From the NCBI GenBank assembly GCA_964585155.1, contig CAZPCQ010000001.1, positions 8,070 through 72,069 on the forward strand: DNA of 64,000 nucleotides, in the 5' to 3' direction. The notes below the pieces were generated by a model. It was not told the origin of the DNA. It did not search any database and saw only the letters and a list, made by a program, of their open reading frames with translations. A program made the translations under genes and the position numbers. This DNA comes from an uncultured Candidatus Saccharibacteria bacterium (lineage in GTDB: Bacteria > Patescibacteriota > Saccharimonadia > Saccharimonadales > Saccharimonadaceae). Below, piece by piece: positions 1-62,217 of this stretch (positions are counted from its first letter, which is position 1; each line of letters starts with the position of its first letter).

Positions 1-593
1 AATCCATCAACTTCGACCTTATGTCCGAGACCGAGCGTGAAGGTGTTGAGTATAGTTACCAGAATTTCCTCAACTCTCTCAACTTTACTATTCAGATTCT
101 TGTTCGCTCTCAACGTGTCGATATCGGCCCTTATATTGAGCGCCTTTCCAACATCCGCCGTAACAACGACAATATGCTTCTCGGCGTCTTGATGGATGAT
201 TACATTAACTTCATCGACATTCTTTCCCAAGAAGCCAACATTATGGACAAATCCTTCTTTATTGTCATTCCATATTACAGTTCCGCCGATGCCGAAGCCC
301 TTGTCCAGCAGACCAAAAACCTGTTCAAAACTTTTGGCAAAAAAGCCCCCAACGTCACTCGTATCAATCGTGACACTTATAATAAAGCCGTCGACGAGCT
401 CAACAACCGCGTCGAAACCGTCATTTCTGGTCTATTTAATATCGGTATTCATTCCGTCCGCCTCAAAACTCGCGAACTCGCCGAACTCTATTACAACTTC
501 AATAATCCCGACACTGCCGTTCGCGAGCCTTTAGTTGACTTTACTAAGTTAGCCACCACCTATGTACGCAAAGGAGAAAAAACCAATGAGTAA
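1..593 (+). CDS. 5'-truncated T4SS-associated protein (TraC/TrsD-like VirB4 partner)
   Basis: Frame is open from the window edge (..SINFDLMSETERE..LNSLNFTIQILVRSQ..). It overlaps the start of the VirB4-like gene. Confidence 0.6.
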   Translation, partial: SINFDLMSETEREGVEYSYQNFLNSLNFTIQILVRSQRVDIGPYIERLSNIRRNNDNMLLGVLMDDYINFIDILSQEANIMDKSFFIVIPYYSSADAEALVQQTKNLFKTFGKKAPNVTRINRDTYNKAVDELNNRVETVISGLFNIGIHSVRLKTRELAELYYNFNNPDTAVREPLVDFTKLATTYVRKGEKTNE

Positions 594-2415
594 AAAAGAC
601 AAGCAAAACCAACTCTCTGCCGCCGAAATCGCTATGCAGTCCCAAGCCGCCGAAGAAGCGGAAATCCAGCAAGCCTTCGAGCAGGGGATTACCACTCTCC
701 GCGACCTCATTTCTCCTAGTTCTATTGAAATCCACTCCGGCTATTTCCGCCTCGGCACTAAATATGGCCGCACTATTTACATTTACGGTTATCCTCGCAG
801 CCTCTACACCGGTTGGCTTTCTCCTCTTATTAATATTGACGAAGTTCTTGATGTCTCTATGTATATTTATCCTGTCGAAACCGCCGTCGTCATGAAAAAC
901 CTCCGCAAAAAAGTCACCCAGCTCGAGGCTAGTTACAATGTTAATGCTGAGCGTGGCAAAGTTCGTGACCCAGAGATTGAAGCCGCCATCACCGACGCCG
1001 AAGAACTTCGTGACAAACTCCAAGTCGGCGCCGAAAAGTTTTTCCGTTTTGGTCTTTACATCACTTTGTGGGCTGATTCACTCGATGAATTGAGTTTTGT
1101 TCAACACAAGATCGAAACCATGCTCGGCCAACAAATGGTCTTCAGTAAAGTCGCCAGCTCTCAACAAGAGCAGGGAATGAACAGTACTATGCCTCAATGT
1201 ACCGACCAGCTCCAAATCCGCCGCAATATGAACACCGGTGCTATTTCCACCAGTTTTCCTTTCACCTCCGCCGACCTCACCCAAGAAAAAGGCATTCTCT
1301 ACGGTGTCAATATGCATAATAACGGTCTCGTTATCTTCGACCGCTTCAGCCTAGAAAACGCCAACCTCGTCGTCTTCGCCAAATCTGGTGCTGGTAAATC
1401 TTTCGCTGTCAAACTCGAAGCCTTGCGTTCCATGATGATCGGCGCCGAGATTCTCATTATCGACCCAGAAAACGAATATCAAAGATTATGCGATGCCGTC
1501 GGTGGTAGTTACATCCGCCTATCACTCAACTCCGACGTCCGTATCAACCCATTCGACTTACCAAAAGTAATTGATAGTGAAGATGCTAATGACGCATTAC
1601 GTGCCAACTTAGTCACTCTGCACGGTCTTTTCCGTCTTATGCTCGGCGGCAACCAAATCGGCCCTAATGGTCAAATTGTCCCCGCCTTAAGCGCCAACGA
1701 AGAAGCCGATCTCGACCAAGCCCTCATTGATACCTACGCCCGTGCTGGCATTACTAGCGACCCCGCCACTCACCAAAACGTTCCGCCAACTATTATCAAT
1801 TTATACGATACTCTACTTCATATGGGTGGCTCCGGCCCTCAGCTCGCTCAGCGCCTACGCAAATACACCACCGGTACTTTTGCTGGCATTTTCTCTCAAC
1901 AGTCTAATATTGATATCAATAACCAAATGGTCGTTTTCAATATTCGCGATCTCGAAGATGAACTCCGCCCCGTGGCCATTTATATCGTCCTTTCCCACAT
2001 TTGGAACATCGTCCGCGCCGACCAGCGCCGCCGTCTCCTCATCGTTGATGAGGCTTGGCAACTTATGCAACACGACGATTCCGCCAACTTCCTCTTCAGC
2101 CTCGCCAAGCGCGCTCGTAAGTATTATCTCGGTCTCACTACTGTCACTCAAGATGTCGAAGACTTTATGAGCACCAAAATGGGCCGTGCCATTGTCGCCA
2201 ACTCTTCTATGCAGTTATTACTCAAACAATCCGCCTCTGCCGTCGATGTTTTATCTGATGTTTTCAAACTTACCAACGAGGAAAAGAAGCGTCTCGCCAA
2301 CTTCCCAGTCGGTCACGGTCTCTTCTTTGCCGGCGCCAACCACGTCCATATTCAGATTATCGCTTCCGAGACCGAAGAATCCCTCATCACTACTCGACCA
2401 GGAGATAAGCGTTAA
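586..2415 (+). CDS. virB4: VirB4/TraE-like T4SS ATPase
   Basis: Walker A AKSGAGKS, IIDPENEY, Walker B LLIVDEAW, RARKY..TQDVEDF. RBS AAGGAG at 571-576 favours the ATG at 586. Confidence 0.85.
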   Translation: MSKKDKQNQLSAAEIAMQSQAAEEAEIQQAFEQGITTLRDLISPSSIEIHSGYFRLGTKYGRTIYIYGYPRSLYTGWLSPLINIDEVLDVSMYIYPVETAVVMKNLRKKVTQLEASYNVNAERGKVRDPEIEAAITDAEELRDKLQVGAEKFFRFGLYITLWADSLDELSFVQHKIETMLGQQMVFSKVASSQQEQGMNSTMPQCTDQLQIRRNMNTGAISTSFPFTSADLTQEKGILYGVNMHNNGLVIFDRFSLENANLVVFAKSGAGKSFAVKLEALRSMMIGAEILIIDPENEYQRLCDAVGGSYIRLSLNSDVRINPFDLPKVIDSEDANDALRANLVTLHGLFRLMLGGNQIGPNGQIVPALSANEEADLDQALIDTYARAGITSDPATHQNVPPTIINLYDTLLHMGGSGPQLAQRLRKYTTGTFAGIFSQQSNIDINNQMVVFNIRDLEDELRPVAIYIVLSHIWNIVRADQRRRLLIVDEAWQLMQHDDSANFLFSLAKRARKYYLGLTTVTQDVEDFMSTKMGRAIVANSSMQLLLKQSASAVDVLSDVFKLTNEEKKRLANFPVGHGLFFAGANHVHIQIIASETEESLITTRPGDKR

Positions 2416-2417
2416 CT

Positions 2418-5400: not shown

Positions 5401-5423
5401 ACCGGAGTTATGCCATATGTTAA
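2418..5423 (+). CDS. Large (1001 aa) membrane-anchored T4SS-cluster protein, function unknown
   Basis: Long ORF 2 nt after virB4 with hydrophobic segments (LITILCILGGGAAFL; SIGLTIASGGL..ISTFFSFL). Confidence 0.65.
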   Translation: MATDTRKSTNELQGGDQPLYQPWNDFSGRPQTSQSQDDVQDNGPTTSKENYDNDPGFYRNSRANSAVNTLRNAENGALSNREAESSLYTGQGRNTNAKSKAKGGKKKIGALITILCILGGGAAFLGSSNTLLLDAVNTLFTNATDYQYSQFSQRILKLVGFNMDSDDIVITEKSWTGALKYKHMSSEFEQNLANAGFTFEGSGGKKTMTWTYDTGDGTTITRSGITASEFIDLYNNNVDFRGKYSLAADNRAMTAFDASANGSYRHIGNTRNTFNDFEDTGNNETNLKNYQDTVRPKFDGDSTTLQTSGKQEVTEYVDKLDANGNPVIENGQVVKEPVTKEVRQSASDSATTSSSVDVDGARSMINKVSGAVSDTGNFYCAAMKFGNMISMAIAGNEIYQSIQFFMTLTEPLSKTKAGFGDQAPVHQVLNWFSTKADTEVSNFGTFKISGQGKQTIEALSQSGSPLESNGMRNILANAAPNTKEVSSFSLERVDNSITGQLSSLATSSDTAGNCARFSITDSIVSIGLTIASGGLTKIFANVIGKALIGTAISVAISTFFSFLTPTIQNAFFTNAFDNAKGQPGGELFARGSGAIGSQNARRNSGYGTASKTKVMQYNKTTNAVLALDAEVDRQRRSPFDISSPNTFFGSIAYSLLPTLTSTNLTGISSILTSTMSSLSTLIGGVHADGENSSYMTTFGECPALESIGATGDMYCNPIPVPDTSTADITPDDQKYQEVLKEAQECDSEGNCTIKPESDLAKYITYYDGRDSPLGVVDQNILAATQPSSDTGIIGTVLNQIPIVGDIINIVDSGADIVNLPWATGAIGSQNGGDSIANLLAATDEVDYKNWWNEKGKYYQRYVEDSRILNMMGAYEATNSKDPVLAYKEEYEQKYLEEHPEANTYIGYLSRVSGLTIENTETTLAFIGYLNYIDQYDPTLRIAMDGDTTEIKTATQIAAIAAEDYHAIYFENDNLETTFTEPIIANHHIIYADVRNRSYAIC

Positions 5424-7210
5424 AACACAAACTACAACTTTTTTTCAAAACTTTCCTCTGTCTCCTCCTCGCTCTCCTCATCGCCTCCCCCGCCTCCGCC
5501 GCCGACAGTTCCTACATTCAGTCTGCCGCCCTCAACGGTAGTTACTGGTACGATCCCTCCGCTCTTAATAGTAGCTGTTTTAGTAGTGATATTTCTATCT
5601 CTGGTAGTACCGCCGCTCAAAAAATCTGGTCCGGCCTCATTACTTTTATGACTCCCGAGCAAGCCGCTGGCGTCATCGGTAATATGGCCAGCGAAGGCGG
5701 TTTCAATCCCGTTCGTCACGAGATCTCCAAAAAGAATGCTCTTTGGCCCGGTTTCGATATTATGAACGACGTCTCCGATTCATATGGTATTGGCCTCATT
5801 CAATGGTCATGGGGGCGTCGCACCAAACTTCTTCATTATATCCAAAGCAACGACTCTAGTCTCATCCAATATTTTATGAATCCCGACACCTACAGTACTT
5901 ACGGTTCTGGCGACAAAACTTCCGGTGATGTTTTCCTTGAAAAAGTAGGTGATGCCGTTTTTGACCGCCTCATCCAGCTTGAGCTCGAAGTTCTCAAAAA
6001 CGAATTAAATATCAGTTACTCCGATTTCTTCAATCAAACCACCGTTTATGATGCCGCCAAATATTTCCTTGAGCGCGTCGAAAGACCCGCCAACCCTACC
6101 ATCGAAGCCCACCCCGAACGCGCCACCGCCGCCCAAACTTTTTATGACCAACTAAACGGCGCTTCTCTCACCCCATCCGGCAGTAACGGTACTAATATTT
6201 CCGGCTCCAGCATCACTATTATTGGCGATTCCATCACCGCCCGTTCCAGCAGCAGTCTCAGTAATAAACTCCCCGGCGTCGAGATTAACGCTGAAGTCGG
6301 TCGCAGTTTCGCTACCGGTATCGACATTGCTAGATCCATGGAACTCCGTAACGTCGTCGTCTTCGCCCTTGGCACCAATAGTCGCAATGTTAGCAGTGAC
6401 CAAATCCAAGAAGTCATCGATCTCGTCGGTCCTTCTCGCTCACTCTACTTCCTCACCAACTACGGCGTCGGCTACGACTTTACCAATAACAACCGTCTCT
6501 TCAATGAAGCCGCCGCCAGAAATTCCAACGTTAATGTTATCGACTGGGCCAGCTCCGTCTCTAGTAGCCCCGATAAATACATCGCCGTCAACGAATCCAC
6601 CCCGGTCCACCCCACTGCCGACGGCATCACCCTCTTTACTGATTTAATCTCTAACGCTGTTACCTCCAAAAACCTCACCAGCGACGGCTGTACTGTCAGC
6701 GGCGATTTCCAATCCACTGTTCTCGCCTACGCCTGGCCTACTCCATCCGACCCCGTCTCCACCGTCAACCAGGCTACTCCTAAACCCGAATACGCCGCCG
6801 CCGTTGCTCGTCGCCGCGCTGCCAACAAATATATCGGTACCAACGGCATTGACTGTGGCTGTTTCGTTGCCGCCGTCTTGACTGATAGTGGTTTCGCTCC
6901 TGGCTACCGTGATAATGGTATGGGTGGGGAAGAGTGGGTTATCGCCAATGGCTGGACTCTCCTCAATCCCGACGAAAACACCCCCATTTCCGACACTAGT
7001 ATTCTTCAGCCTGGCGATGTCGCCTTCTCCAACGGCGCCCCGGGCAACGCCGGCCACACCTTCCTATATGTCGGTGATATTCCTGGCTTCGGATCAAAAA
7101 TCGCTTCCGCTTCCACTGGACCCACCTGGCGCGCGCCTATGGCAGGCACAGAAAGCCTTACCCAAAGTAATTTTGGCGGCTATCCAGTTCGCTGGTATCG
7201 TAAAGGTTAA
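5417..7210 (+). CDS. Secreted cell-wall hydrolase: phage-tail-lysozyme-like + SGNH + NlpC/P60-like domains
   Basis: Signal peptide; QAAGVIGNMASEGGFNP..GIGLIQWS; IIGDS..ALGTN..VHP; DCGCFV..LQPGDV..GHTFLYVG. Confidence 0.75.
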   Translation: MLKHKLQLFFKTFLCLLLALLIASPASAADSSYIQSAALNGSYWYDPSALNSSCFSSDISISGSTAAQKIWSGLITFMTPEQAAGVIGNMASEGGFNPVRHEISKKNALWPGFDIMNDVSDSYGIGLIQWSWGRRTKLLHYIQSNDSSLIQYFMNPDTYSTYGSGDKTSGDVFLEKVGDAVFDRLIQLELEVLKNELNISYSDFFNQTTVYDAAKYFLERVERPANPTIEAHPERATAAQTFYDQLNGASLTPSGSNGTNISGSSITIIGDSITARSSSSLSNKLPGVEINAEVGRSFATGIDIARSMELRNVVVFALGTNSRNVSSDQIQEVIDLVGPSRSLYFLTNYGVGYDFTNNNRLFNEAAARNSNVNVIDWASSVSSSPDKYIAVNESTPVHPTADGITLFTDLISNAVTSKNLTSDGCTVSGDFQSTVLAYAWPTPSDPVSTVNQATPKPEYAAAVARRRAANKYIGTNGIDCGCFVAAVLTDSGFAPGYRDNGMGGEEWVIANGWTLLNPDENTPISDTSILQPGDVAFSNGAPGNAGHTFLYVGDIPGFGSKIASASTGPTWRAPMAGTESLTQSNFGGYPVRWYRKG

Positions 7211-8205: not shown

Positions 8206-8541
8206 AAGCCCTACAAGGCCCTTCTTTTTCCAACAAGGCATCCATCCTTTTCTTTTTTCATTAAAATTTATTTTCACATTTCAAAATTATTTTCAACAAA
8301 ACTCGCCCAACGCATTCATACCCACCTTTCACCAAACACCCACCTTCCTGGCCAAATTTAGCGCCTTTCCCACCATTTTATCCACCCATCACCACCCACA
8401 TTCTTCCACTCATTTTTCACTTATTTTCCGTTCGGTTTTCCTCTACCTCTGTTTTTCTTACCAAAACCGAACAACCCGAACACTTACCTCCAAACCCGAA
8501 CACATTTTATATCACTTTCTTCTAAATTATACAACCATCAC

Positions 8542-8757
8542 TTTTCCACATTACGTGGATAACTTTTCCGCTTTTTCACCATACCAAACCCGAACACAAA
8601 AAGTCCACTTTATTACTAACATAATTAGTTTCACCTCAGTTTTCCACTTATCCACTTTTATCTGTGGAAAACTCCCACTCCACCCACCGCTCCGACGGGG
8701 ATTTTTCTTATAAAAATCGGTGGTAAGTTTTCCACTTTTCCACCTACTTTTCCACAT
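8542..8757. promoter_or_regulatory. DnaA-box cluster downstream of recF
   Basis: TTTTCCACA (8542, 8749), CGTGGATAA (8554), TTATCCACT (8648), TGTGGAAAA (8663), TTTTCCACY (8640, 8729, 8737). Confidence 0.7.
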
Positions 8758-8776
8758 TATTCAAAAACTAATGACG

Positions 8777-11021: not shown

Positions 11022-11040
11022 ACTTCCTTTATCAGCCCTT

Positions 11041-11288
11041 CATTATAATTTATTTAATAATAGTAATAGTAAGTACTGTGGAAATTGTGGAAAACGCTCC
11101 CCCATATCTGTTTTCCTATGTGCAAATCGACCTGCAAAACTTTCCCACAGCCACGTGCAAAACTCCGACTTTTACCCACCAAAACCCCACTTTCCGACTT
11201 TTTCACAGCCCCCTTCCAACTTTCCCACAGTCTTTCCCACAAACTTTCCCACAAACTTATCCACATTTTTTCCACAGCCACCGCATTT
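11041..11288. promoter_or_regulatory. oriC: oriC: AT-rich DUE, DnaA-trios and DnaA boxes between dnaA and dnaN
   Basis: TAA TAA TAG TAA TAG TAA (11055-11072), then GTAC and TGTGGAAAT/TGTGGAAAA (11077, 11086). This matches the B. subtilis basal unwinding layout. Further boxes at 11221, 11233, 11245, 11257 (TTATCCACA) and 11268. Confidence 0.9.
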
Positions 11289-12662
11289 TTACCCATAAAT
11301 CTGCTCCCTCAGCTCGTTTACCTGATCCCTCAGACTGAAGTTCAATTTCAGGTCCTTTTCAATTTTCTTTACTCCGTGCATCACCGTTGTATGATCCTTC
11401 ACCCCTACCTCTAGCGCAATTTTCGGCGTACTCATCCCTAAATCTTTCGACAAAATATACATCGCCACCTGCCGTGCATTCTTAATATGCGCCACCCGAC
11501 TCTTTCCGCACATTTCTTTCGGTGTTAATTGATAAAACTTCGCCACTTTTTCTACCACCATCTTCGGTGACACCGTCTTCGCTCGTGTTGCATTAACCGA
11601 GTTCGCATACCCTTCCGTAATTACCTGATAAGGCGTCATATTCTTAAAATCTGCCACCGCCAAAATATGTGTCAACTCTCCTTCCAGTGCCCGAATATTT
11701 GTCTTCACATTATCCGCAATATATTCAATCGCTTCATCTTCAATTTCCGCTCCCCGGAACTCCGCCATCGATTTTAAAATCGCGCACCGGTCCTCAAACT
11801 GCGGCATCTGCAAATCATACTCACCCGCCTGTGATAGCCGCGACGCCAATCTCACATCTACCGACTTAATCTCATTCGGCAACCGATCCGATGTTACAAT
11901 AATCTGTTTGTCGTGTTGTGTTAGCTCGTTAAAAATATCAAAAAACTCCGCCTGTGACGCATCCTTATTCATGATCATCTGGAAATCATCAACAATCAAC
12001 ACATCTAATTTTTGGAATCTCTGCCGGAATTCCTCAATTTTTTTTGTCTGCAGCGCCTTAATGAAATCTGAATAAAAACTCGATATCGGCGTATAAAATA
12101 CTTTTAGTGACGGATCTCGCTTCAAGATCTCATTTCCGATCGCCTGCACTAGATGCGTCTTACCTAGTCCCGGTCCGCCATACAGGAAAAACGGGTTGTA
12201 TCTCGTCCCCGGCGCGTCAATTACATTTTGCGCCACGTTCACCGCTAGATCGTTATTTGTACCAATCACAAAATTATCTAGCGTATATCTTGGATTTAGC
12301 CCCGTTTGTACCGACCCGTTCACTAGTGGGGAAGAACGGTAATTTGAAGTCGCCACATTTGCTAATGACTGAATCGCATCCACTGGCGGTCTCGATATAT
12401 GATTTTTCGGTTTCGGCTTCTCTCGCGTCAAAATATCATATTTTATCTCTGTGACCGCTATGTCATTATGCGTCAGCGCCATCTTGATTACATCCGAGTA
12501 TTTCGACTGCAACTGTTTCCGCTTAAACACATTCGGCACCCCAATCACAATCAAATCATCTTCTATCGAAAGTAACTCTGCTCCAGTAAACCAAGTCGCA
12601 AACTGTTCCTTCGGAATCGTCTGTTCAATCTCAGCCATCACCTTCTTCCACACATCAAGCAT
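11289..12662 (-). CDS. dnaA: Chromosomal replication initiator DnaA
   Basis: YNPFFLYGGPGLGKTHL, DDFQ, RLASR, ARQVAMY, KDHTTVMHG. Confidence 0.98.
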   Translation of the reverse strand: MLDVWKKVMAEIEQTIPKEQFATWFTGAELLSIEDDLIVIGVPNVFKRKQLQSKYSDVIKMALTHNDIAVTEIKYDILTREKPKPKNHISRPPVDAIQSLANVATSNYRSSPLVNGSVQTGLNPRYTLDNFVIGTNNDLAVNVAQNVIDAPGTRYNPFFLYGGPGLGKTHLVQAIGNEILKRDPSLKVFYTPISSFYSDFIKALQTKKIEEFRQRFQKLDVLIVDDFQMIMNKDASQAEFFDIFNELTQHDKQIIVTSDRLPNEIKSVDVRLASRLSQAGEYDLQMPQFEDRCAILKSMAEFRGAEIEDEAIEYIADNVKTNIRALEGELTHILAVADFKNMTPYQVITEGYANSVNATRAKTVSPKMVVEKVAKFYQLTPKEMCGKSRVAHIKNARQVAMYILSKDLGMSTPKIALEVGVKDHTTVMHGVKKIEKDLKLNFSLRDQVNELREQIYG

Positions 12663-38337: not shown

Positions 38338-38660
38338 TATTACCCCTCCTAATTTTTTGTCTTCTGATCTGATTTCACTGGATAACCGCAGTAGAACTTG
38401 TATAACTACCTGGTTTATAAAGTCCCACTTCGGTCTTTGCTGGATTTTTGCTGGTTTCTGCTATGTCTGGCCCATCCGCCAGAGATTTTCCCACCTTTCT
38501 TCTAGTAAAATTGATTTCAAAGAACCTCGGGTCACACCCAACCTTCAAATTATAGCACACTTCACCAAACATTTCAAGTCTTGCCAAAACGCTTATGCTG
38601 TGCTACAATAAGCTCATCGCTCTGCTAATGAGCCAAAAGTTGATTTTTCTATAAAGATTT

Positions 38661-38870
38661 TGAGGGCGGCGAACCGCCTCTGGAGCGGGACCTAAGACTT
38701 GGCCGAGCGGATTCCGAACTGCCGAGAATAGCGAACAGAAAGAAAAGTCTTTGAGTAGTATTCTATATATCATACACTTTATTAGACTTTTCTTTCTTAA
38801 GCGACGCAGGCAGCATGTGGCGCCAGCCACTGCAGCGGTCCCGCGGAAGAGGTGGGAGCGAAAGCCCTCA
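38661..38870 (+). repeat. Structured repeat family A, full copy
   Basis: Aligns end to end with 62221-62430; ends 6 bp from the galE stop codon. Confidence 0.9.
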
Positions 38871-42178: not shown

Positions 42179-42590
42179 CTGCCCTCCTTGTGGGTATTAA
42201 TTATCGCCCCGCAGCCGCCATCTTTGAGGAGGGCCAACTCCATACAAAAATGGCGCCGCGAGGCGAAACCACAATCTAGAAGCAATCTGCTCAAGAACGT
42301 TAGCTTTCTCGTGACGCCATTTTCACGTTCTCAAACAAATACACTCAAATAAGCAATTGTCATAATTCCAAATTGTGATTTCGCACTTCCAATTATATAT
42401 CAAACTGTCTGCGTTTTCAAGCATTTTTCTCGCCTCCCCAGCGAGCTGACGTACGTATCATAAGTTTCATAACCCACTCTTTAGCAGTTAGGATTAAAAA
42501 CCTTCAGAGCTGTCAACAACACGGCCTCCTAAGGCAGATACCTCCTCCTCTCCATCTCTCCTCTAGCGAATTAATCTTGATATTATGCTC

Positions 42591-42746
42591 GGCGCGACCC
42601 GGTGAACCTTTTCATTCGAGGTTATTTCGTTCCTGGCTGGCTCGGGTCCGATTCAGGCGGGTTGGTTCTGAGTGAGAATGGGCTAAATCCTGATGAGGAG
42701 AGAGCCACCAAACCTCGGAGGGAAAGGTGAGCGCAAGGGGAGCGCC
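42591..42746 (+). repeat. Structured repeat family B, copy 1
   Basis: GGCGCGACCCGGTGAACCTTTTCATTC..GGAAAGGTGAGCGCAAGGG shared with 51742-51898. Confidence 0.85.
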
Positions 42747-42915: not shown

Positions 42916-44343
42916 ATGAAACGGGACACGGGTTTGATTTTCCACGCTTTCCTGATTTTGGGTGACGCGTGCGCGATTTTACTGTCCTTTTTGGCGGCTT
43001 ATTTTATGCGCACTCATTTGGACCAACGCCCATTTTATTTTGAGGCTGACCCTTGGCGCTTCGTTTTGTCAATGCTGGTTATGGTCCCCGTTTATCTTCT
43101 AATTATGGCTGCCCTCGGGCTGTACAAGAAATCCGTTTTTCTCAGCAATAGTCGCTGGCACGAAATCGGCCGCATTTTCCTCGCCTCTGTCATTGGGATG
43201 ATGGCGATTATCACCTGTGACTTCTTCTTTTCCACCGACCTTTTCCCGGTCAAAGTTATGGCATTATATGCTGTTTTCACCTGTTTTGTCTTGCTTAGTC
43301 TTTTCCGCGGTGGCGTCCGCCTCGTCCGCAGTTTTGCTCTCAAGCACAGCCACAAAGCCGCTCTTCGTGCCATCATTGTCGGCAATAGTCAAAATACCGA
43401 GTACCTCGCTGACTACATCTCCGCTTATCCCGAGTCTGGCTTCCGTCTTGCCGGTATAGTCGCCTCGCAGAAATATATCCCCAAAGATCTCCGCCGCAAA
43501 CAATATTCCTCTCTCAAAGAGGCCTTGCGCAAGGCCCGCCCCGACGTTATTTTCCAAACCGATGAGCGCCGTACTGATTACGTCTATCGTCAGGCTGTCA
43601 ATCGTCATCTCTATTATTATTTCGTGCCTTCTAGTGCTGCTCTTACCGCCCAGACCGGAGAAATGGAGCTCGTCGGCAGTACCCCGGCTATCTTAGTCAA
43701 AGTCACCCCTCTTGCCGGCGGTGCCCGCTTTGCCAAGCGCTGTTTCGATCTGTTTTTCGGGTCGATTATTTTACTGCTTGCCCTCATTCCGATGGTTCTC
43801 ATCTGGCTAATCGAGAAGATCTCCGATCCACACGCCCCTGCCGTCTATAGTGATATCCGCCTCTCCCGCTATAACAAGAAGTTCAAGATTTACAAATTCC
43901 GCTCCATCAAGTCAGAATACAACGGCCTCACCCCAGAGGAGGCCTTCGAGAAAATGGGCAAACCTCAGCTGATCAAAAAATACCGTGCCGGCGGCGATAT
44001 GATCCCTAACGACCCTCGTATCACCAAACTCGGCCACTTCCTCCGCGCCACTTCGCTGGACGAATTGCCGCAATTGTTTAACGTTGTCAAAGGCGACATC
44101 TCTCTCGTCGGTCCCCGTGCCCTCGTCCCCGGAGAACTCCGCCATTACGGCGATCGCTCCCTCCTCCTCTCGGTCAAATCTGGGCTTACTGGCCTCGCCC
44201 AAGTCTCCGGCCGCCGCGACATCGGTTTCGACGAACGTCGCGCCCTCGACCTCTATTACATCCAAAACTGGTCTATCTGGCTTGATCTCCGCATCCTCCT
44301 CCGCACGGTTGGCGCTGTTCTACTCTGTAAAGGGGCGAAATGA
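42916..44343 (+). CDS. Polyprenyl-phosphate sugar-1-phosphate transferase (WcaJ/WbaP family)
   Basis: KRCFDL, FKIYKFRS, DPRITKLGHFLRATSLDELPQLFNV, SLVGPR, DLYYIQNWS. Confidence 0.93.
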   Translation: MKRDTGLIFHAFLILGDACAILLSFLAAYFMRTHLDQRPFYFEADPWRFVLSMLVMVPVYLLIMAALGLYKKSVFLSNSRWHEIGRIFLASVIGMMAIITCDFFFSTDLFPVKVMALYAVFTCFVLLSLFRGGVRLVRSFALKHSHKAALRAIIVGNSQNTEYLADYISAYPESGFRLAGIVASQKYIPKDLRRKQYSSLKEALRKARPDVIFQTDERRTDYVYRQAVNRHLYYYFVPSSAALTAQTGEMELVGSTPAILVKVTPLAGGARFAKRCFDLFFGSIILLLALIPMVLIWLIEKISDPHAPAVYSDIRLSRYNKKFKIYKFRSIKSEYNGLTPEEAFEKMGKPQLIKKYRAGGDMIPNDPRITKLGHFLRATSLDELPQLFNVVKGDISLVGPRALVPGELRHYGDRSLLLSVKSGLTGLAQVSGRRDIGFDERRALDLYYIQNWSIWLDLRILLRTVGAVLLCKGAK

Positions 44344-46337
44344 CCTCTAGGAACTCTCCAAAGGTGGGCTCACGAGCGCAAAACCCCTCAAAATCACCCA
44401 AAAATGACCAACGGTCAGTTTTTCCTGTCAAAAACGCCCAAAAATCTCAAAAACCGAAAAAAGATAATTCTTCGTCGGAAACCGCGCTTTTTGACAAAGA
44501 ATCAAACTGGTCTTTGGAGGTTAGACACCTTTCTCCCAGAAAGGGGTCTAAATATGGCGTCGCCCTCGTCTGTGACTGGCTCACCACCCCTGGTGGCGCC
44601 GAAAAAGTTCTCCTCGAGCTCCACCGTATGTATCCCGACGCCCCCATCTACACCTCTCAATATAGTAAAAAGGGAATCGACTGGTTTGCTGACGCCGATG
44701 TTCGCACCGGCTGGCTCCAAATCTTCCCGAGAGCCTTCCGCAAATTCATCGGTCCCTTACGTCAGCTCTATTTTAGCCACCTCGACCTTTCCAGCTACGA
44801 TCTTGTTATCTCTGTTACTGGTGCTGAAGCCAAATCCGTCCGTACGAAACCTAGGCAACAATCTTCATCAAAAAGCTCCAAAACCGACCTCACCGTGCCC
44901 AAAAAACACCCATCATCAAAAAATGCACCTTCCATCGAACCGCAAACCGGCGCCACCCACCTCTGTTACTGTCACGTCCCTACCCAATACTATTGGCAAA
45001 TGTATGACAAATATGTCGCAAACCCTGGTTTTGGCCTGCTCAACCCTCTTGTTCGCCTCGCTTTTAGAGTTCTAGTCAAGCCTCTCCGCCAGGCCGATTA
45101 TCGCGCCGCTCAGCAGCCCGACCAGTTTATCACCATCTCAAATTACGCCAAAGATCAGATTCAGAAATACTATCAGCGTGACGCTGTTGTCATCGCTCCG
45201 CCGGTCGAAGTTGCCAAATTTACCCGCTCTTCTGTGTGCTCTCTGCCGGAAAACTCTAAAAATCATCGACGGAATTCTACTTTTCCACCGGAAGTAGCCC
45301 AGAAATCCACTGCTAGTGGGGAATTATCCACCAAATCTCCCAAGATTTCCACAAATTCTCCACAAGAAATCCACTGCACGCCTCATACTTTTCCATCAAG
45401 ATCATCTACTTCTCCACAGATTATCCACAGCCAAAACGTAGTTTATCCACAGGGGATTACAACTTCTCCACAACATTTCCACCAGAAATCCACCGAAAAC
45501 CGTAACTTTTCCACAACTTCTCCACAGAATATAGCAGATCTTTCCACCGTTAGCACTAAAATTTCCACAACTTTTCCACAAGTTTTCCACAATCAAAGTC
45601 AAAGTTATCCACAGGACGGATATTTTATCATTTCTTGTCGCCAGGTGAACTGGAAACGCGTTGACCTTGCCATCACCGCCTGCAAATCTCTTCATCTCCC
45701 CCTCAAAGTCATCGGTAGCGGCCCCGAGCATTCACGCCTTGTCAAACTTGCCGATAACTGTCCTAATATTGAATTTATCCCTTGGCTCGACACTGGAGAA
45801 TTAGCCCATTTTCTGCAAAATGCCACCGCCTATCTTTTTCCTAGCCTTGAGCCTTTTGGCATCGCTGCTGTCGAGGCTCTTGCTGCCGGTTGTCCCGTCA
45901 TCGCCTATCGCGAGGGCGGCAGCCAAGACTTTATCGAAGAAGGGAAGAATGGGCTCTTCTTCGATCAGCAGACTCCGGATTCTCTTATCAAGGCTCTCCA
46001 TACTTTCTATGATTACGACTTCGACCCCAATATTGTCGCTCAGACCGCCCAGCGTTTTAGTCCTGACCACTTCCGCCAGCAGATTCAGTCTCTCATCAAT
46101 CAATCTTTTCACGGTATCGTGAAATCAGATCTCGACCCCAGTCAAAGCCACCCCAGTTCATCGACCTCATCTCACTCCAAGCCTATCACGCAAGCCAAAC
46201 AAGGTCACTCAAATCCCAAAGCATCAAACTCCTCATCCCGCCCCAAATCCATCACGAAATCCAAACCTCAGCCCAAAGATCTCATATCAGACCATCGTGC
46301 CAATAAAAAATCAACCAAGAAAGGAACAAATTTATGA
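44340..46337 (+). CDS. GT4 glycosyltransferase with several low-complexity insertions
   Basis: VALVCDWLT..GGAEKV, WKRVDLAI, EPFGIAAVEALAAGCPVIAY. Confidence 0.88.
   Translation: MTSRNSPKVGSRAQNPSKSPKNDQRSVFPVKNAQKSQKPKKDNSSSETALFDKESNWSLEVRHLSPRKGSKYGVALVCDWLTTPGGAEKVLLELHRMYPDAPIYTSQYSKKGIDWFADADVRTGWLQIFPRAFRKFIGPLRQLYFSHLDLSSYDLVISVTGAEAKSVRTKPRQQSSSKSSKTDLTVPKKHPSSKNAPSIEPQTGATHLCYCHVPTQYYWQMYDKYVANPGFGLLNPLVRLAFRVLVKPLRQADYRAAQQPDQFITISNYAKDQIQKYYQRDAVVIAPPVEVAKFTRSSVCSLPENSKNHRRNSTFPPEVAQKSTASGELSTKSPKISTNSPQEIHCTPHTFPSRSSTSPQIIHSQNVVYPQGITTSPQHFHQKSTENRNFSTTSPQNIADLSTVSTKISTTFPQVFHNQSQSYPQDGYFIISCRQVNWKRVDLAITACKSLHLPLKVIGSGPEHSRLVKLADNCPNIEFIPWLDTGELAHFLQNATAYLFPSLEPFGIAAVEALAAGCPVIAYREGGSQDFIEEGKNGLFFDQQTPDSLIKALHTFYDYDFDPNIVAQTAQRFSPDHFRQQIQSLINQSFHGIVKSDLDPSQSHPSSSTSSHSKPITQAKQGHSNPKASNSSSRPKSITKSKPQPKDLISDHRANKKSTKKGTNL
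45281..45613 (+). repeat. Phased DnaA-box array inside the GT4 coding sequence
   Basis: 20 (T/A)T(A/T/C)TCCAC-type 9-mers, every gap 11, 21 or 22 bp; perfect TTATCCACA at 45421, 45443 and 45605. Confidence 0.9.
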
Positions 46338-48328
46338 AGATCCTCCGCAACCTTCTCTGGCCCCTAGTCTACGCCCTCCCTGCCGTCCTCTTTTTCTCCT
46401 ATCACCCCGTCATCGGCCTCGGCGCCAACTCCTCCATGAACTTCGAACTCTCCCTTCCGCTCCTCTGGCTGATTATTTTTGATTTCTTTAGTTTCATTAC
46501 AATGGTCGTCCTCTTCGTTCAAAAACGTCAATCAGCGCAGCACAAATCCACTTCAAAATCAATAGGCCAAGCATCCGCCCGCTCTAAGCATCACTCTGGC
46601 CCCTGGGGACCTCACCTCCCTGGCCTCACCGACCGCCGCTTCTTCCTCTTAGCCATTTTCCCGCTCTACCTCACCATCTCGGTTTTCTGGTCGGCCAATC
46701 CCCTCCGCGGTCTCTTCACCGCCGGCGTGATGTGGGCTGTCTTTTTCGCCGTTTTCTCTCTGTTATTTATTGTCCCCCAGACTGGCGCTCCTCGCCGCCT
46801 CCGCACTCACGTCCTCTTGACAATGTTCATCTCCGCTGTTATCGTTTGCAAATTTTGCTATGCTCAGAGTATTATGGATACTTGCTTTGGCCTTTCCCGC
46901 GATGCTACTCTCCTCTGCCCCGGCTGCACTTACCGCTCCTTCGGCTTTCCTCATCCTTCCGGCTTCGCCATCGAGCCCCAGTTTATGGGCAATCTCCTTC
47001 TCGCCCCCACCCTCACCGCGCTCTATCTCGTCGCCTTCCGCTCGCGCAAATTCGCCAATACCGTTATCCATGAAGCCTCTCATCTTGAGAATGAGGCCGA
47101 ACATAATCTCCTTCACGACCAAGTTCACCTCCCCGAGGTCAACTGGAAACTCTGGCAACGCATCGGTATGATCATCCTCGCCGGCTTCCTTTCGATGACG
47201 CTGTTTTTCACCTTCTCCCGCGGCGCCATTTACGCTTACGTCGTCGCCATCTTGAGTATGCTAATTTTTGCCCTCAAGCGTCACCAATTCCGCTGGAGCC
47301 TCATCGCTATCCCCGTTGTCAGTTTCATCCTCTCGCTCAGCCTCCAGGGAACATTCGCCGCCGTCGGCCCCACCGCTGAGACTTTCTTCTCCGGCGTCGC
47401 CAAATCCGTCCACCAGCTCTCCCTCGGCCTCATCGACTTCCGTTCGCTCGCTTATGAGCCCTCCGAGGACGCCATCGAGCAATATAGTTATGAGCATGCC
47501 GTCCCCACCTCTGTCGCTCGGGAGATTCTCAAACGTCAATATCAATCCCAGCTCTCTTCTCAATCTGTGAAAAACTCCTCATCAAACGGTGGAAAACCTG
47601 TGGATAAAACCAGCCTAGATGTGGAAAAGAATGACCAAAATGTAGATAAAATCGATCAAGATGTAGAAAAAACCGCCGAAATCATCGACCACGAAATCAC
47701 CAAAGAGGAAACCAAGTTAGAAAACGAGGTTGATACTACGCTTGAAGATATCATTTTCGAGGGCTACGTTCCCGAATCCACCAATATCCGCCTGCACCTC
47801 AATCGCGCCGCCATCGACACCTGGCTTTCCGCCCCCGGCCATCCCGAGTCCGGCCTCAGTATTGGTCTCAAATGTTCCCACTCCGACCCCTGCCTTGCCT
47901 CTGGTAAACTCACTCCCACCAGCATCCTCTTCGGCGTTGGCCTTGGTGGTGCCGGCACCGCCCTCTATCTCAATTCTCCCGTTACTGACATTAACTCGCC
48001 CAAAGAAATCGTCCAAAACGAACCCTTCTCCCTCCTCTTAGAAACCGGACTCGTCGGCATCGCTCTGGCTATTTTCGGACTCCTCATCATCTTCGCGCCC
48101 CAGATTTTCACGCGCAAATTCCTCGACGGCAAATCCGCTCCAGCTACCAAATCCACCCCCAGCCCCTTCTGGCGCCATCCCGCTCTCCCGCTTCTCCTCT
48201 CCCTCATCGTCGCCTACGTCATCACCCTCAATTTCTTCTCCGGCCTCCCCAACGCCCTCCAGATTTACCTCATGCCGCCCCTCCTCTACCTCATCTTTTC
48301 TGACCACTACCGCGTCACCACTGTTTAG
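46334..48328 (+). CDS. O-antigen ligase/polymerase-like (Wzy_C) membrane protein
   Basis: Many TMs; GFAIEPQ, TFSRGA, FGVGLGG, NEPFSLLLETGLVG. Confidence 0.75.
   Translation: MKILRNLLWPLVYALPAVLFFSYHPVIGLGANSSMNFELSLPLLWLIIFDFFSFITMVVLFVQKRQSAQHKSTSKSIGQASARSKHHSGPWGPHLPGLTDRRFFLLAIFPLYLTISVFWSANPLRGLFTAGVMWAVFFAVFSLLFIVPQTGAPRRLRTHVLLTMFISAVIVCKFCYAQSIMDTCFGLSRDATLLCPGCTYRSFGFPHPSGFAIEPQFMGNLLLAPTLTALYLVAFRSRKFANTVIHEASHLENEAEHNLLHDQVHLPEVNWKLWQRIGMIILAGFLSMTLFFTFSRGAIYAYVVAILSMLIFALKRHQFRWSLIAIPVVSFILSLSLQGTFAAVGPTAETFFSGVAKSVHQLSLGLIDFRSLAYEPSEDAIEQYSYEHAVPTSVAREILKRQYQSQLSSQSVKNSSSNGGKPVDKTSLDVEKNDQNVDKIDQDVEKTAEIIDHEITKEETKLENEVDTTLEDIIFEGYVPESTNIRLHLNRAAIDTWLSAPGHPESGLSIGLKCSHSDPCLASGKLTPTSILFGVGLGGAGTALYLNSPVTDINSPKEIVQNEPFSLLLETGLVGIALAIFGLLIIFAPQIFTRKFLDGKSAPATKSTPSPFWRHPALPLLLSLIVAYVITLNFFSGLPNALQIYLMPPLLYLIFSDHYRVTTV
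47566..47670 (+). repeat. Small phased DnaA-box array inside the ligase-like gene
   Basis: Boxes at 47566, 47588, 47599 (perfect TGTGGATAA), 47620, 47641, 47662. Confidence 0.75.
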
Positions 48329-50252: not shown

Positions 50253-51737
50253 ATGCTAAAACTCAACACTAAATTAAAATACCCACTCTTCACAATAACT
50301 TTTGCGTTGGGTGGATTTTTCTTATTTCAATACCTAACTTTTATTCCCGAATACTCCAACGCCACAACTATAGAAACTCCCGTCTACGACGATTCCAAAG
50401 TCGACACGCGCACTCTTTCTGACATTACTTATATGCAAGAAATGACATCTGGAATATGTAAACGTTCTGTAAAAAATGAAAGTAAACAACTTATCGATGG
50501 CCGTGATGGAAAACACTATTGGGTAACAAAGCTCGTTGGTCCAGGCGGTGAAGAAAAAAATGGATGTTGGATGACGCAAAATTTGGATTTCGATTTGTGG
50601 AATGAGGAGACTAATGAACCAATAGTATTAAAAGTGGATAATTTAAATTTTATGGGCACAGATATAGAAAAGAATTGGGAGTCTACTTCTGGGAGATCTG
50701 TGCTATGGGCGGATTCGGGGAGCGAGACAGTTAAGTACTATGACCCGGGGTACTATTTGTATAAAGGCTTTTCTTTACGTCAGCCGGCGTCTCGCGATTT
50801 GGCATATGGCAAGGCATCGGAAAATTTGACCTTGACGGATGCTCATTACCTTCAAGGGAATTACTATTCATTCAACGCTGCTACGGCTGGCAAAGGGGCA
50901 AATTTTGGCCTTGTGGGTAAGGATGAAGATGTACGGAGTAGTATTTGTCCGAAAGGCTGGAGGCTACCTACGGCTCTTAGTGATGATGGGGTGTCATTCA
51001 ATTTTTTAAATACAGTAAGCACAACTAAGATATTTTCATCACCGTATTTCTTTATAAATAGCGGTTTTGTGAATGGAGGCTTGCTAGATGATGCCTTCGC
51101 TGGTAGATACTGGTCTTCTACGGCTTATGCTTATAGGGACGATGCTTATGATTGGGGTTTTGCTGATGGTGACGAGTGGCCAGCGCTTGGTATAATTTAC
51201 AGATATGAGGGAAAGACTATAAGATGCGTAGCGAGGGACGATACTGAAGATGTGGAGACTCCGGGCATTGATAATCCAAACACCTCCGTCACCGTCCCAA
51301 ACATAATAACACTAGACGTAAGTAATAATGTAAATATAGAAACAAATACTAATACAGTAAACGAAGGTAGTTTCACCGCTTCCGTCAGTTCTAATGCTCC
51401 ATATAGCATTAGTCTTAGTACCACGGATGGTGGCCACACCGACTTACGTAATGATAATACCAACTCCTCCATTCCCGCATTAAACCCTACTTCTAATATC
51501 ACAGAGAGTAGTAGTAAATGGTGGGGAATCAAATGTACTAACTCAGGCACTTCCACGGGTTGTACTAAAACAACCTATACTGGTCTTACTAATCACTTAA
51601 CTCCCACTCTTTTCTATACATCAACTCAAAGTACCTCTAACCAACTCACCCACTTCACCATCGGCATCCAAACCTCTCCCGACCTCCCAAGTGGCACTTA
51701 TTCCACCAGTATATTAGTTACTGCATCTCAGAATTAG
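50253..51737 (+). CDS. FISUMP domain surface protein 3 (FISUMP first, beta-sandwich domain last)
   Basis: NGCWMTQNL, GNYYSFNAA, ICPKGWRLP, GRYWSST, TIRCVAR; RBS AAGGAGG. Confidence 0.8.
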   Translation: MLKLNTKLKYPLFTITFALGGFFLFQYLTFIPEYSNATTIETPVYDDSKVDTRTLSDITYMQEMTSGICKRSVKNESKQLIDGRDGKHYWVTKLVGPGGEEKNGCWMTQNLDFDLWNEETNEPIVLKVDNLNFMGTDIEKNWESTSGRSVLWADSGSETVKYYDPGYYLYKGFSLRQPASRDLAYGKASENLTLTDAHYLQGNYYSFNAATAGKGANFGLVGKDEDVRSSICPKGWRLPTALSDDGVSFNFLNTVSTTKIFSSPYFFINSGFVNGGLLDDAFAGRYWSSTAYAYRDDAYDWGFADGDEWPALGIIYRYEGKTIRCVARDDTEDVETPGIDNPNTSVTVPNIITLDVSNNVNIETNTNTVNEGSFTASVSSNAPYSISLSTTDGGHTDLRNDNTNSSIPALNPTSNITESSSKWWGIKCTNSGTSTGCTKTTYTGLTNHLTPTLFYTSTQSTSNQLTHFTIGIQTSPDLPSGTYSTSILVTASQN

Positions 51738-51741
51738 TCTC

Positions 51742-51898
51742 GGCGCGACCCGGTGAACCTTTTCATTCAAGGTTATTTCTTTACTGGCTGAGCCGGGTCC
51801 GATTTGCGAGAGGAGAATAGTAGAACAGAATAACTATGCTCCGCAATGAGGAGAGGCTCACCGAACCTTGAATGGAAAGGTGAGCGCAAGGGTTGCGC
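51742..51898 (+). repeat. Structured repeat family B, copy 2
   Basis: Homologous to 42591-42746; starts 4 bp after the FISUMP-3 stop codon. Confidence 0.85.
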
Positions 51899-62166: not shown

Positions 62167-62217
62167 TGAATTAGAATAATAAAAGATGAAGTTTAATAAT
62201 TTGACGTAGAAAATGAT

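Follow-up and report, generated by a model that had tools for sequence, protein, structure and literature searches.

Why should the coding sequence of a glycosyltransferase contain a long, regular row of sites resembling those bound by DnaA? Extra-origin DnaA-box clusters are recognized as a means of initiation control and have hitherto been described as intergenic. We analysed a 64-kb stretch of DNA (the window) from an uncultured Candidatus Saccharibacteria bacterium, in which 20 such sites lie inside an open reading frame. We found no prior description in the literature on DnaA boxes in Saccharibacteria/Patescibacteria or on intragenic clusters. The features discussed below are listed in Table 1.

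Table 1. Features of the window, with positions counted from its first nucleotide
Feature	Position	Strand	Description
DnaA-box array, 20 TTWTCCACA-like boxes, head-to-tail	45281..45613	+	Encodes aa 314-425 of the GT4 protein
GT4 (GT-B fold) glycosyltransferase ORF (predicted), 665 aa	44340..46337	+	Glycos_transf_1 at aa 417-557; invariant E504-x7-E512
In-frame 133-aa insert, aa 295-427, predicted disordered	45222..45620	+	Between last helix of N-terminal Rossmann domain and first strand of C-terminal domain
Second array, 16 phased boxes, TGTGGAWAA on coding strand, gaps 11/21/22	33687..33974	-	N-terminal extension of ABC-transporter ATPase ORF 33616..34761
Sigma-70-type promoter-like element, near-consensus, antisense: TTGACT-17 nt-TGTG-TATAAT	33642..33670	-	In frame in the ABC ATPase extension, peptide PPLYHTKGKKSIE
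Third array, 6 phased boxes, gaps 22, 11, 21, 21, 21	47566..47670	-	VDK/VEK peptides in Wzy/O-antigen-ligase-like membrane protein ORF 46334..48328
dnaA gene	11289..12662	-	Domain IV with RQ.AMY, P, DHTTV.H DNA-contact signature
oriC-like module, dnaA-dnaN spacer	11040..11280	.	AT-rich stretch, trio-like repeats (TAG/TAA) and a pair of adjacent boxes, followed by five boxes spaced 12/12/12/11 bp
Intergenic DnaA-box cluster downstream of recF	8370..8760	.	Non-coding; used as comparison
DnaA boxes in the dnaA-rpmH interval, upstream of dnaA	12717..12860	.	

An array of phased DnaA-box-like sites in a glycosyltransferase gene

We found that the 333-bp array contains the core TCCAC 19 times and TCCAT once, with none on the minus strand. 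The original prediction had placed 20 9-mers at positions from 45281 to 45605, all on one strand, with gaps of 11, 21 or 22 bp and with three perfect boxes. Every 9-mer was present as stated, and a recount gave the same strand, exclusively the same three spacings and the same number of perfect boxes. Three boxes match TTATCCACA perfectly (45421, 45443 and 45605); the others deviate from it at one (8 boxes), two (3) or three positions (6). The strong boxes (perfect or with one mismatch) are mixed among weak ones along the array.

The boxes occupy 20 of the 31 slots of a 10.8-bp lattice, in runs of 1-3 neighbouring sites with a single empty slot between runs. Phase coherence at this period was R=0.98. 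For 19 positions placed at random in the same span, the best R averaged 0.40 and reached a maximum of 0.69. TTTT tracts within the array also repeat each 10.8 bp.

The region is far richer in TCCAC than its composition predicts: it has 19 copies, whereas 2000 dinucleotide shuffles of its sequence averaged 1.3 and never exceeded 6. When the full 64 kb was shuffled 100 times, the richest 333-bp segment averaged 3.6 copies, with a maximum of 6. Contigs from four independent sequencing runs cover positions 44579-46400 with zero differences and zero gaps, and comparable arrays are present in independent assemblies of >20 species. Chance and assembly error, both raised as objections in the original prediction, are excluded by the shuffles, the random placements and the agreement of the four runs, and we give an artefact or chance cluster practically no credence.

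Within the 333 bp of the array, at a distance of 33 kb from dnaA, 11 boxes differ from TTATCCACA at no more than one position. Outside clusters, 18 such boxes were found in 64 kb, compared to ~14 expected, so the motif is not over-represented and a dispersed motif of the uptake-signal type was ruled out. A phase-variable simple-sequence repeat was also ruled out: the repeat units are 66-79% alike (72-95% in TRF rows, across short stretches), and there were no indels in four runs. There is no Rfam match to a structured RNA at the GT4 array.

The array encodes a predicted disordered linker

Based on sequence and a structural model, the host protein is predicted to be a GT4 glycosyltransferase with a GT-B fold and an EX7E motif. 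The ORF, whose start overlaps the stop codon of a priming sugar transferase gene, encodes a match to Pfam PF00534 (E=6e-26), and the EX7E residues E504 and E512 are invariant. Foldseek matched the fold to PimA, MshA, BshA and HepE. In the AF2 model, domains at residues 74-294 and 429-595 are separated by a disordered stretch at 309-423.

These results agree with the earlier proposal of an in-frame insert of ~130 aa in the GT-B interdomain linker, which we delimited at 133 aa. Its bounds are F294 (IAPPVEVAKF) on one side and Y428 (YFIISCRQV) on the other, and the insert is absent from minimal orthologs of 370 aa. Translated, the array is a predicted disordered linker of Ser, Thr, Pro, Gln and His. 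The box starts use all three codon phases of the ORF (7, 4 and 9 boxes).

The array motif and the DnaA box

The identification of the motif as a DnaA box, as first claimed, is supported by its sequence and by its use near dnaA. A position weight matrix built from 370 array sites (255 forward and 115 reverse) yielded TTWTCCACA. This consensus equals the DnaA box at 9 of 9 positions, and its conserved part is TCCACA, not the T-tract alone. The DnaA encoded in the window was aligned with 8BTG, 3PVP and 1J1V, and RQ.AMY, Pro and DHTTV.H are conserved; we take the base-contacting residues to be those assigned from the 1J1V complex. The five boxes of the oriC-like module, whose AT-rich and trio-type part is located at 11040-11100, are made of the AACTTWTCCACA unit, which is also the building block of the GT4 array.

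The sites might instead be read by a partition or iteron-type protein, or by a nucleoid protein that recognizes the curvature of phased T-tracts, in which case the likeness to DnaA boxes would be superficial. Direct repeats phased at 11 bp are commonly seen in plasmid centromeres and iterons, and the 10.8-bp repetition of TTTT tracts is what such a protein might recognize. We consider this improbable: the match to the DnaA box is complete, conservation covers TCCACA beyond the T-tract, and the array unit also flanks dnaA in a canonical origin layout. No alternative candidate binding protein for the arrays was identified.

That the array acts as another replication origin, or belongs to the origin as a distant portion, is conceivable but very improbable. 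The array has many phased boxes, and the GC skew of the window does not switch at dnaA. However, the flanks of the array have neither an AT-rich unwinding element nor trio-like repeats and consist of conserved coding sequence of ~50% GC. There is no switch in skew at 45 kb either, as values over the 44-49 kb interval range from -0.27 to -0.40, and a complete oriC-like module is already present in the dnaA-dnaN spacer. Because the skew does not switch at dnaA, origin-proximal status is not secure in the window. In the literature, one paper notes T4SS genes near dnaA (PMC12102498).

Arrays are conserved in related genomes, and selection appears to act on the DNA

We found arrays of 5-19 cores at the same GT4 linker in the window and in 22 species-level Saccharibacteria genomes. 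These GT4 genes are only ~65-70% identical even within the conserved domain, and array length differs among species. At least two linker boxes, in either orientation, were present in 58 of 80 species. Many Saccharibacteria have merely 0-4 boxes there, and species L067 and L068, with a GT4 gene 7 kb from dnaA, have zero. A large array is therefore not a universal need.

We surveyed the neighbourhood of the GT4 gene (+/-10 kb) and the 64-kb window for further arrays. The hosts were the GT4 linker, a loop of the Wzy-like protein, the N-terminus of the ABC ATPase and, in L049, the N-terminus of a GT2 protein. A phmmer search for further host proteins, run with only the insert peptide, gave no matches, probably an effect of low-complexity filtering. 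All 42 of 42 surveyed arrays are enclosed by gene-strand ORFs (309-1096 aa), and their positions are orthologous within each of three or four gene families. These positions, and the lack of inverted-repeat structure in the GT4 array, ruled out an in-frame mobile repeat of the RPE or MITE type. Over 27 arrays, the median phase coherence was R 0.97 at 10.75 bp.

Spacing follows the helix and not the reading frame. Among 328 gaps, the common lengths were 11 (88), 12 (22), 21 (127), 22 (50) and 32/33 bp (21), and there were next to none of 13-20 or 23-31 bp. Almost half (159/328) are not multiples of three. Codon choice within the inserts is distinctive: Ser-Thr is encoded as TCC-ACN in 123 of 133 pairs (92%), compared to 3 of 20 (15%) outside, and Pro-Gln as CCA-CAR in 57 of 66, compared to 1 of 14 outside. 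Given boxes in all three frames, roughly half of the gaps off-frame and codons fixed by the motif, the sequence pattern indicates that selection targets the DNA, not the peptide, of the array. The gap census and the codon counts bear out what the original prediction had argued on this point.

The opposite view is that the array is a peptide-level or neutral repeat, a Ser/Thr/Pro-rich linker that grew by replication slippage, is possibly phase-variable and has no function as DNA. The variation in array length among species is consistent with this, as is the prevalence in several species of frame 0 (xST), for example in 13 of 16 boxes in L002. We regard this view as very unlikely, and the gap census and the codon counts contradict it. 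Beyond the use of all frames and the motif-dictated codons, gaps that would suit a peptide (15, 18, 24 and 27 bp) are absent. Reverse-complement copies in other proteins yield the unrelated peptides VDK, VEN and CGK, the repeat units differ too much for slippage to be efficient, and four samples showed no length polymorphism.

Arrays with the same spacing were also found at metagenome loci, where the open frames are mostly 30-170 aa and dnaA is present on 20 of 120 loci. Given these short frames and the presence of dnaA, such arrays are, judging from their sequence, ordinary non-coding origins.

Sister arrays and antisense promoter-like elements

The window contains three translated arrays, all in one polysaccharide locus (Table 1). 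A conserved Shine-Dalgarno sequence and ATG precede the ABC array. In the window, L013 and L016, a near-perfect antisense promoter-like element has this array directly upstream of its -35; in the window the closest DnaA box is 16 bp from that -35. The same antisense promoter-like element is also present within a GT4 N-domain insertion in thirteen species; in L002 it is ~330 bp past the array. There was no adjacent strong promoter at the Wzy arrays, at the GT4 array of the window, or at the ABC arrays of L010, L014 and L015. In Nanosyncoccus-type genes, promoter-like matches at +347/+356 in the linker overlap conserved YYIITSRQVNWKR codons and were therefore discounted. We also looked for joints that an inversion between the GT4 and Wzy arrays, which are convergent, would leave; four runs had none.

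The antisense promoter-like element abuts the ABC-ATPase array, and local transcriptional control is therefore a serious alternative to pure titration. DnaA occupancy might primarily control the surface polysaccharide locus, by blocking elongation or by gating an antisense promoter, and so tie the synthesis of envelope glycans to the state of replication, with titration as a side effect. DnaA is known as a transcription factor (PMC3245932, PMC13438810), and the antisense elements of the ABC and GT4 genes and the widespread retention of linker boxes fit such a role. Arrays were seen solely in polysaccharide-locus genes, but this restriction may be an ascertainment effect, as the survey covered the neighbourhood of this locus. 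Twenty phased sites far exceed what promoter control needs, and the arrays listed above that have no adjacent strong promoter also speak against it. We consider a primarily local role possible, although rather doubtful.

A possible role in restraining initiation

Our preferred explanation, which we hold with moderate confidence, is that the 333-bp stretch is a putative DnaA-box cluster of the DBC/datA type, selected as DNA, carried in frame in a peptide-tolerant linker, and presumably serving to restrain initiation. ATP-DnaA would nucleate at the strong boxes and spread cooperatively to weak neighbours, giving a filament of perhaps 20-30 protomers; ATP-DnaA behaves in this way on the low-affinity site arrays of E. 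coli oriC. The GT4 array and those of the ABC ATPase (with 16 boxes) and the Wzy-like protein (with 6) would jointly form a high-capacity cluster outside oriC, 22-36 kb from dnaA. Such a cluster could hold or inactivate the initiator, like the B. subtilis DBCs or E. coli datA. The arrays would be duplicated early after initiation, and re-initiation would thereby be restrained. As in the case of B. subtilis DBCs, occupancy probably also alters how the polysaccharide locus is transcribed. The linker of the GT4 protein presumably accepts any flexible peptide, and the arrays may be placed in ORFs because small genomes hold little intergenic DNA.

The unswitched skew at dnaA and the small number of boxes in many linkers weigh against this proposal. 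Transcription across the arrays should also displace DnaA and make the sink leaky. Moreover, recurrence in the same few polysaccharide genes, together with the putative antisense promoter, points to a local role that could be primary. By analogy with known clusters, those described here would buffer DnaA, regulate the polysaccharide locus, or both. Tentatively, a broader picture can be drawn from these sequences: this clade may keep regulatory DNA, as long phased arrays and, in places, complete antisense sigma-70-type promoters, within coding sequence that is translated into disordered linkers. DnaA filaments on it might tie the state of initiation to initiator availability and to antisense or roadblock control of surface polysaccharide synthesis, a cell-cycle circuit in bacteria that lack most known regulators.

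Comparison with known systems

DBCs of B. subtilis lie outside oriC, in most cases close to the origin. Their binding of DnaA is stable, they hold initiation in check, and some also regulate genes next to them (Okumura et al. 2012, PMC3245932). Like the GT4 array, they are clusters of many DnaA boxes away from the origin. In contrast to these intergenic DBCs, the putative Saccharibacteria cluster is inside ORFs and translated, and its boxes, as many as 20, are strictly unidirectional on a 10.8-bp lattice.

E. coli datA, a locus near oriC but distinct from the origin, carries a cluster of high-affinity DnaA boxes and reduces the potential for initiation (PMC3245932, PMC5010248). It is described as non-coding (PMC4585315, PMC5010248), requires IHF (PMC10950094), and promotes hydrolysis of DnaA-bound ATP (PMC4585315). 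It has about five boxes, whereas the GT4 array has 20, phased differently and in coding sequence.

The arrayed sites of E. coli oriC are one helical turn apart (9-mer plus 2 bp), and the GT4 array shares their uniform orientation and helical-turn spacing. The oriC arrays have 4-5 non-coding sites beside an unwinding element; the GT4 array has 20 sites, is coding, and has no unwinding element. According to Rozgaja et al. 2011, as cited in PMC4621074, strong boxes anchor the arrayed low-affinity sites, which guide progressive, cooperative oligomerisation of ATP-DnaA.

The array also resembles other DNA that is tolerated within genes. Rickettsia palindromic elements, of which Ogata et al. wrote in 2000, reportedly insert in frame into genes and are translated as an extra surface segment. 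The likeness lies in a DNA-level repeat that is tolerated in frame and translated. However, those elements are mobile, palindromic and selfish with no known binding array, whereas the Saccharibacteria repeat is an array of putative sites for a transcription and replication factor, and its orthologous placement is conserved. Uptake signal sequences, Chi, KOPS and parS are short functional DNA motifs within ORFs that shape the local peptide. They are single dispersed sites, in contrast to long phased arrays that form a whole protein segment. Schaefer and Messer are said to have found, in 1988 and 1989, that a DnaA box inside a transcription unit stops RNA polymerase in an orientation-dependent manner. 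That was one box and the GT4 case is an array, where a similar local effect is possible.

If DnaA binds the array, this would be a very clear natural case of dual coding, in which an array of sites dictates a protein segment. It would also give a first handle on replication control in Patescibacteria/CPR and possibly a direct link between replication and envelope glycans in obligate episymbionts. For annotation, low-complexity 'linkers' of streamlined genomes can be cis-regulatory DNA. The design rule is simple: a forward DnaA box contains a stop codon in 0 of 3 frames.

Phased DnaA boxes in a GT4 glycosyltransferase gene

We found that the boxes of the GT4 array are phased and arose neither by chance nor by artefact. 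All 20 positions in the original prediction contain the claimed 9-mers. Three sites match TTATCCACA exactly, as predicted; the others differ from it at one position (eight sites), two positions (three sites) or three positions (six sites). The core is TCCAC in 19 sites and TCCAT in one. The single strand and the spacing that had been described were also found: the opposite strand carries none of the sites, and every gap measures 11, 21 or 22 bp. The proposed test of spacing periodicity gave a lattice with a period of 10.8 bp (R = 0.98; 20 of 31 slots occupied), compared with a best R of 0.40 on average and 0.69 at most for random positions. Nor was the motif equally frequent in shuffled sequence. 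Dinucleotide shuffles of the array region had a mean of 1.3 cores (maximum 6), and the shuffled whole window had at most 6 cores in any 333 bp. The shuffles and the random-position null rule out chance. Contigs of four independent runs cover 44579-46400 with 0 differences, ruling out misassembly as the source, and we consider the likelihood of an artefact negligible.

Locations of features in the window and in related loci (L numbers)
Feature	Location	Strand	Remarks
T4SS, VirB4/TraG P-loop ATPase	562..2415
T4SS, 1001-aa ORF
T4SS, tail-lysozyme-domain protein	5417..7210
recF-dnaN-dnaA	8777..12662	minus	adjoins rpmH-rnpA-yidC
oriC-like module, dnaA-dnaN spacer	11040-11280		complete; AT-rich stretch, trio-like repeats, boxes
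TAG/TAA trio-like repeats	11058-11077
Two adjacent reverse boxes	11078-11095
Five forward boxes	11221-11276		spaced 12/12/12/11 bp
G-rich ~220-nt element	14122-14209 (partial), 38653-38870, 62212-62431		intergenic
ABC-transporter ATPase ORF	33616..34761
Antisense sigma-70-type promoter-like element	33642-33670	minus	TTGACT-17-TGTG-TATAAT, near-consensus
Same element, ABC ATPase extension of relatives	L013 3715-3743; L016 3156-3184
ABC-transporter ATPase array	33687-33974		16 phased boxes; opposite orientation to GT4 array
~165-nt element	42582-42745, 51733-51898		two copies
Priming sugar transferase (Bac_transf)	42916..44343		neighbour of GT4 gene, one side
GT4 ORF	44340..46337
GT4 low-complexity additions	44340-44560, 44841-44960, 46140-46337		N-terminal 70 aa; N-domain insertion; C-terminal 65 aa
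GT4 array	45281-45613	plus	20 boxes
Wzy/O-antigen-ligase-like membrane protein	46334..48328		neighbour of GT4 gene, other side
Wzy-like array	47566-47670		six phased boxes, inside ORF 46334..48328
GT4 N-domain antisense element	L002 3924-3952; L003 9230-9258; L006 8112-8140; L007 10405-10433; L010 10477-10505		8 more loci

The array is an insert between two domains

The 665-aa GT4 product has a Glycos_transf_1 domain (aa 417-557), and its residues 248-291 weakly match Glyco_transf_4. In an AlphaFold2 model built with 24 homologs, residues 74-294 and 429-595 form two confidently predicted Rossmann-type domains, and the segment between them, 309-423, has pLDDT below 50. Foldseek matches of the model are the GT4 enzymes PimA, MshA, BshA and HepE, and E504 and E512 of the EX7E motif are invariant in the homolog alignment. 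Homologs are 370 to 1010 aa long. Between F294 and Y428 there are 133 residues in the window protein and nine in the 370-aa homologs, bearing out the predicted ~130-aa linker insert. Many homologs have inserts of 43-207 aa at exactly the same point.

The gene belongs to a surface-polysaccharide locus (21-48 kb) that includes its two neighbours, several GT2 genes, GT8, Glf, an epimerase and an ABC-2 exporter. Three more low-complexity additions in the GT4 protein have no counterpart in the minimal 370-aa orthologs. The peptide SSETALFDKESNWSLEVRHLSPRKGS, at the N-terminus of the window protein, reappears in one homolog (P0003) at the N-domain insertion site, suggesting a shuffled DNA segment. 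The ~165-nt elements (83-89% identical, no Rfam match) include one copy immediately upstream of the priming sugar transferase gene.

Conservation and selection on the DNA

The window is Candidatus Saccharibacteria DNA. Searching with the host protein recovered 80 related loci, all from Saccharibacteria MAGs (gut, rumen and mouth). In the window and 22 species-level genomes, the linker has 5-19 TCCAC cores on the coding strand and 0 on the non-coding strand, with gap sizes as in the window. Even the conserved catalytic domain has a nucleotide identity of only ~65-70% among these genomes; at such divergence, a linker evolving neutrally would have been randomised. Linkers of other lineages have 2-4 boxes; those of L058, L070 and L071 are in reverse orientation, and L073 has one in each. 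At least two linker boxes were present in 58 of the 80 species, and box density was 4.4 per kb in the linker versus 0.9 per kb elsewhere.

Four agreeing lines of evidence indicate that selection acts on the DNA of the arrays, as originally proposed. First, gaps in 42 arrays were 11 (88), 12 (22), 21 (127), 22 (50) or 32/33 bp (21), with almost none of 13-20 or 23-31 bp. Since 159 of 328 gaps are not multiples of three, the spacing contradicts a peptide repeat and fits helical phasing exactly (median phase coherence 0.97 at 10.75 bp in 27 arrays). Second, boxes occupy all three reading frames in the GT4 array and its relatives; read in these frames, the box yields the peptides LST/FST/KST, FPQ/YPQ/SPQ and IH/FH that make up the inserts of the homologs. 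Third, the motif dictates codon choice in the inserts: Ser-Thr is encoded TCC-ACN in 123/133 pairs there versus 3/20 in the flanking domains, and Pro-Gln is encoded CCA-CAR in 57/66 versus 1/14. Fourth, in other proteins the reverse-complemented motif yields the unrelated peptides VDK, VEK, VEN and CGK. It is very improbable that the GT4 array is a peptide or neutral repeat.

The motif and the dnaA region

By sequence, the array motif is the DnaA box. The position matrix from 370 array sites is TTWTCCACA, and a AACTTWTCCACA unit is common to the GT4 array and the five forward boxes of the dnaA-dnaN spacer. The window DnaA can be aligned over its full length with that of B. subtilis (8BTG; E=3.5e-80), and domain IV of the window protein retains RQ.AMY, Pro and DHTTV.H. 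These results uphold the predicted identity, and binding by another protein is improbable. Outside clusters the motif is not over-represented in the window (18 sites versus ~14 expected).

The spacer has a textbook origin layout, and further boxes lie upstream of dnaA and past recF. A 390-bp intergenic region downstream of recF (8370-8760) has ~9-12 DnaA-box-like sites in both orientations and could be a non-coding DBC (DnaA-box cluster outside oriC) or a second origin half. Short tandem TGTGCAAAACTC units (variant boxes TTTTGCACA; 18590-18624) sit between minus-strand genes for a Fib_succ_major-domain protein and an LCP-family protein. Type IV secretion genes (562-7210) directly adjoin recF-dnaN-dnaA, an arrangement reported in Patescibacteria (PMC12102498). 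The G-rich elements (86-98% identical, no Rfam match) may be a leader, ncRNA or REP-like repeat.

Throughout 1-60 kb the + strand has a strongly negative GC skew (-0.05 to -0.56), which approaches 0 only past 60 kb; no sign switch was found at the dnaA-dnaN module (11.0-11.3 kb). In the related loci L067/L068, skew flips at dnaA-dnaN, and 7 kb separate dnaA from the GT4 gene. In these loci, as in the window, the polysaccharide block borders the dnaA region, but its orientation relative to the dnaA block is inverted between them and the window. A rearrangement may have played a part. The lack of a skew switch at dnaA in the window weakens the argument that the arrays are origin-proximal. That the GT4 array is itself a second origin seems highly improbable.

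Sister arrays are also coding

The ABC-transporter ATPase array lies in a 140-aa N-terminal extension. GGAGG and ATG right after the permease stop, 5' of this array, are conserved in the window, L010, L013, L014 and L015, which indicates that the extension is probably translated. In relatives, GT4 arrays have TCCAC on the coding strand. Wzy arrays (11 loci) have GTGGA on the coding strand, ~2 kb downstream of the GT4 array, and ABC ATPase arrays occur in 5-6 loci. L049 has a 10-core reverse array (3035-3234) in the N-terminal extension of a GT2 protein, whose GT2 domain starts at aa 157; no such extension is present in the window ortholog (36164..37198).

Each of the 42 arrays lies wholly within a gene-strand ORF (309-1096 aa). 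As a control, we searched metagenomes for sets of three boxes spaced 11 bp apart. Arrays in the resulting 120 loci lay in open frames mostly of 30-170 aa (four longer frames were spurious); 20 loci contained dnaA and none contained this GT4. Phased 11-bp DnaA-box arrays are thus ordinary in origins, and the unusual feature of the Saccharibacteria arrays is their coding status.

Antisense promoter-like elements

The arrays might primarily control local transcription, with DnaA gating antisense transcription or acting as a roadblock. We consider this the main alternative, though less likely than a buffering role. In the surveyed loci, arrays were found solely in polysaccharide-locus genes, and in the window, L013 and L016 the -35 of a near-perfect antisense promoter-like element lies just downstream of the ABC array (16 bp away in the window). 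This element is in frame within the ATPase extension, translated PPLYHTKGKKSIE, and transcription starting from it would run into the ABC-2 permease gene in the antisense direction. Of the 14 other strong promoter-like sites in the window, 13 lie between genes, mostly right in front of one. The same antisense element occurs in the GT4 N-domain insertion of 13 species (translated LPLYHTSSEKSIE or SPHYSTDDVKSQ), 24-54 nt before the CHVPTQY motif (159 nt in L011), and is apparently a second kind of in-frame regulatory DNA. It lies ~330 bp beyond the GT4 array in L002; the window copy (44841-44960) has apparently decayed. Promoter-like matches within GT4 ORFs were 26 antisense versus 3 sense. However, promoter control needs far fewer than twenty sites, and the window GT4 array lacks a strong adjacent promoter, as do the Wzy arrays and several of those in ABC genes.

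A possible buffering role

On balance, our analysis favours a putative DnaA-binding cluster with a DBC-like buffering role. The arrayed sites of E. coli oriC have 2-bp spacing. Like them, the GT4 array intersperses strong and weak boxes in a single orientation, one helical turn apart. On such an architecture, ATP-DnaA oligomerises progressively at the E. coli origin (Rozgaja et al. 2011, as cited in PMC4621074). DnaA filaments of ~20-30 protomers could form on the GT4 array, with similar filaments on the sister arrays; together, the three window arrays would add ~42 phased sites at a distance of 22-36 kb from dnaA. Six DBCs, lying outside oriC and for the most part near the origin, restrain initiation in B. 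subtilis; some of them also regulate adjacent genes (PMC3245932). The Saccharibacteria arrays fit this role but, unlike that family, are not intergenic.

Full-text literature searches returned no account of DnaA boxes in either Saccharibacteria or Patescibacteria, and none of DnaA-box arrays that are intragenic or translated. Clusters of DnaA boxes outside oriC are a known kind of element. What is new here is that the array is in frame, with its boxes read in three frames, that it keeps its phase for 30 helical turns and that its position in the protein is conserved among orthologs. ORFs may tolerate such arrays because they lie in disordered or terminal segments of the host proteins and because the forward box is stop-free in every frame; the reverse box, TGTGGATAA, has a stop codon in one frame.
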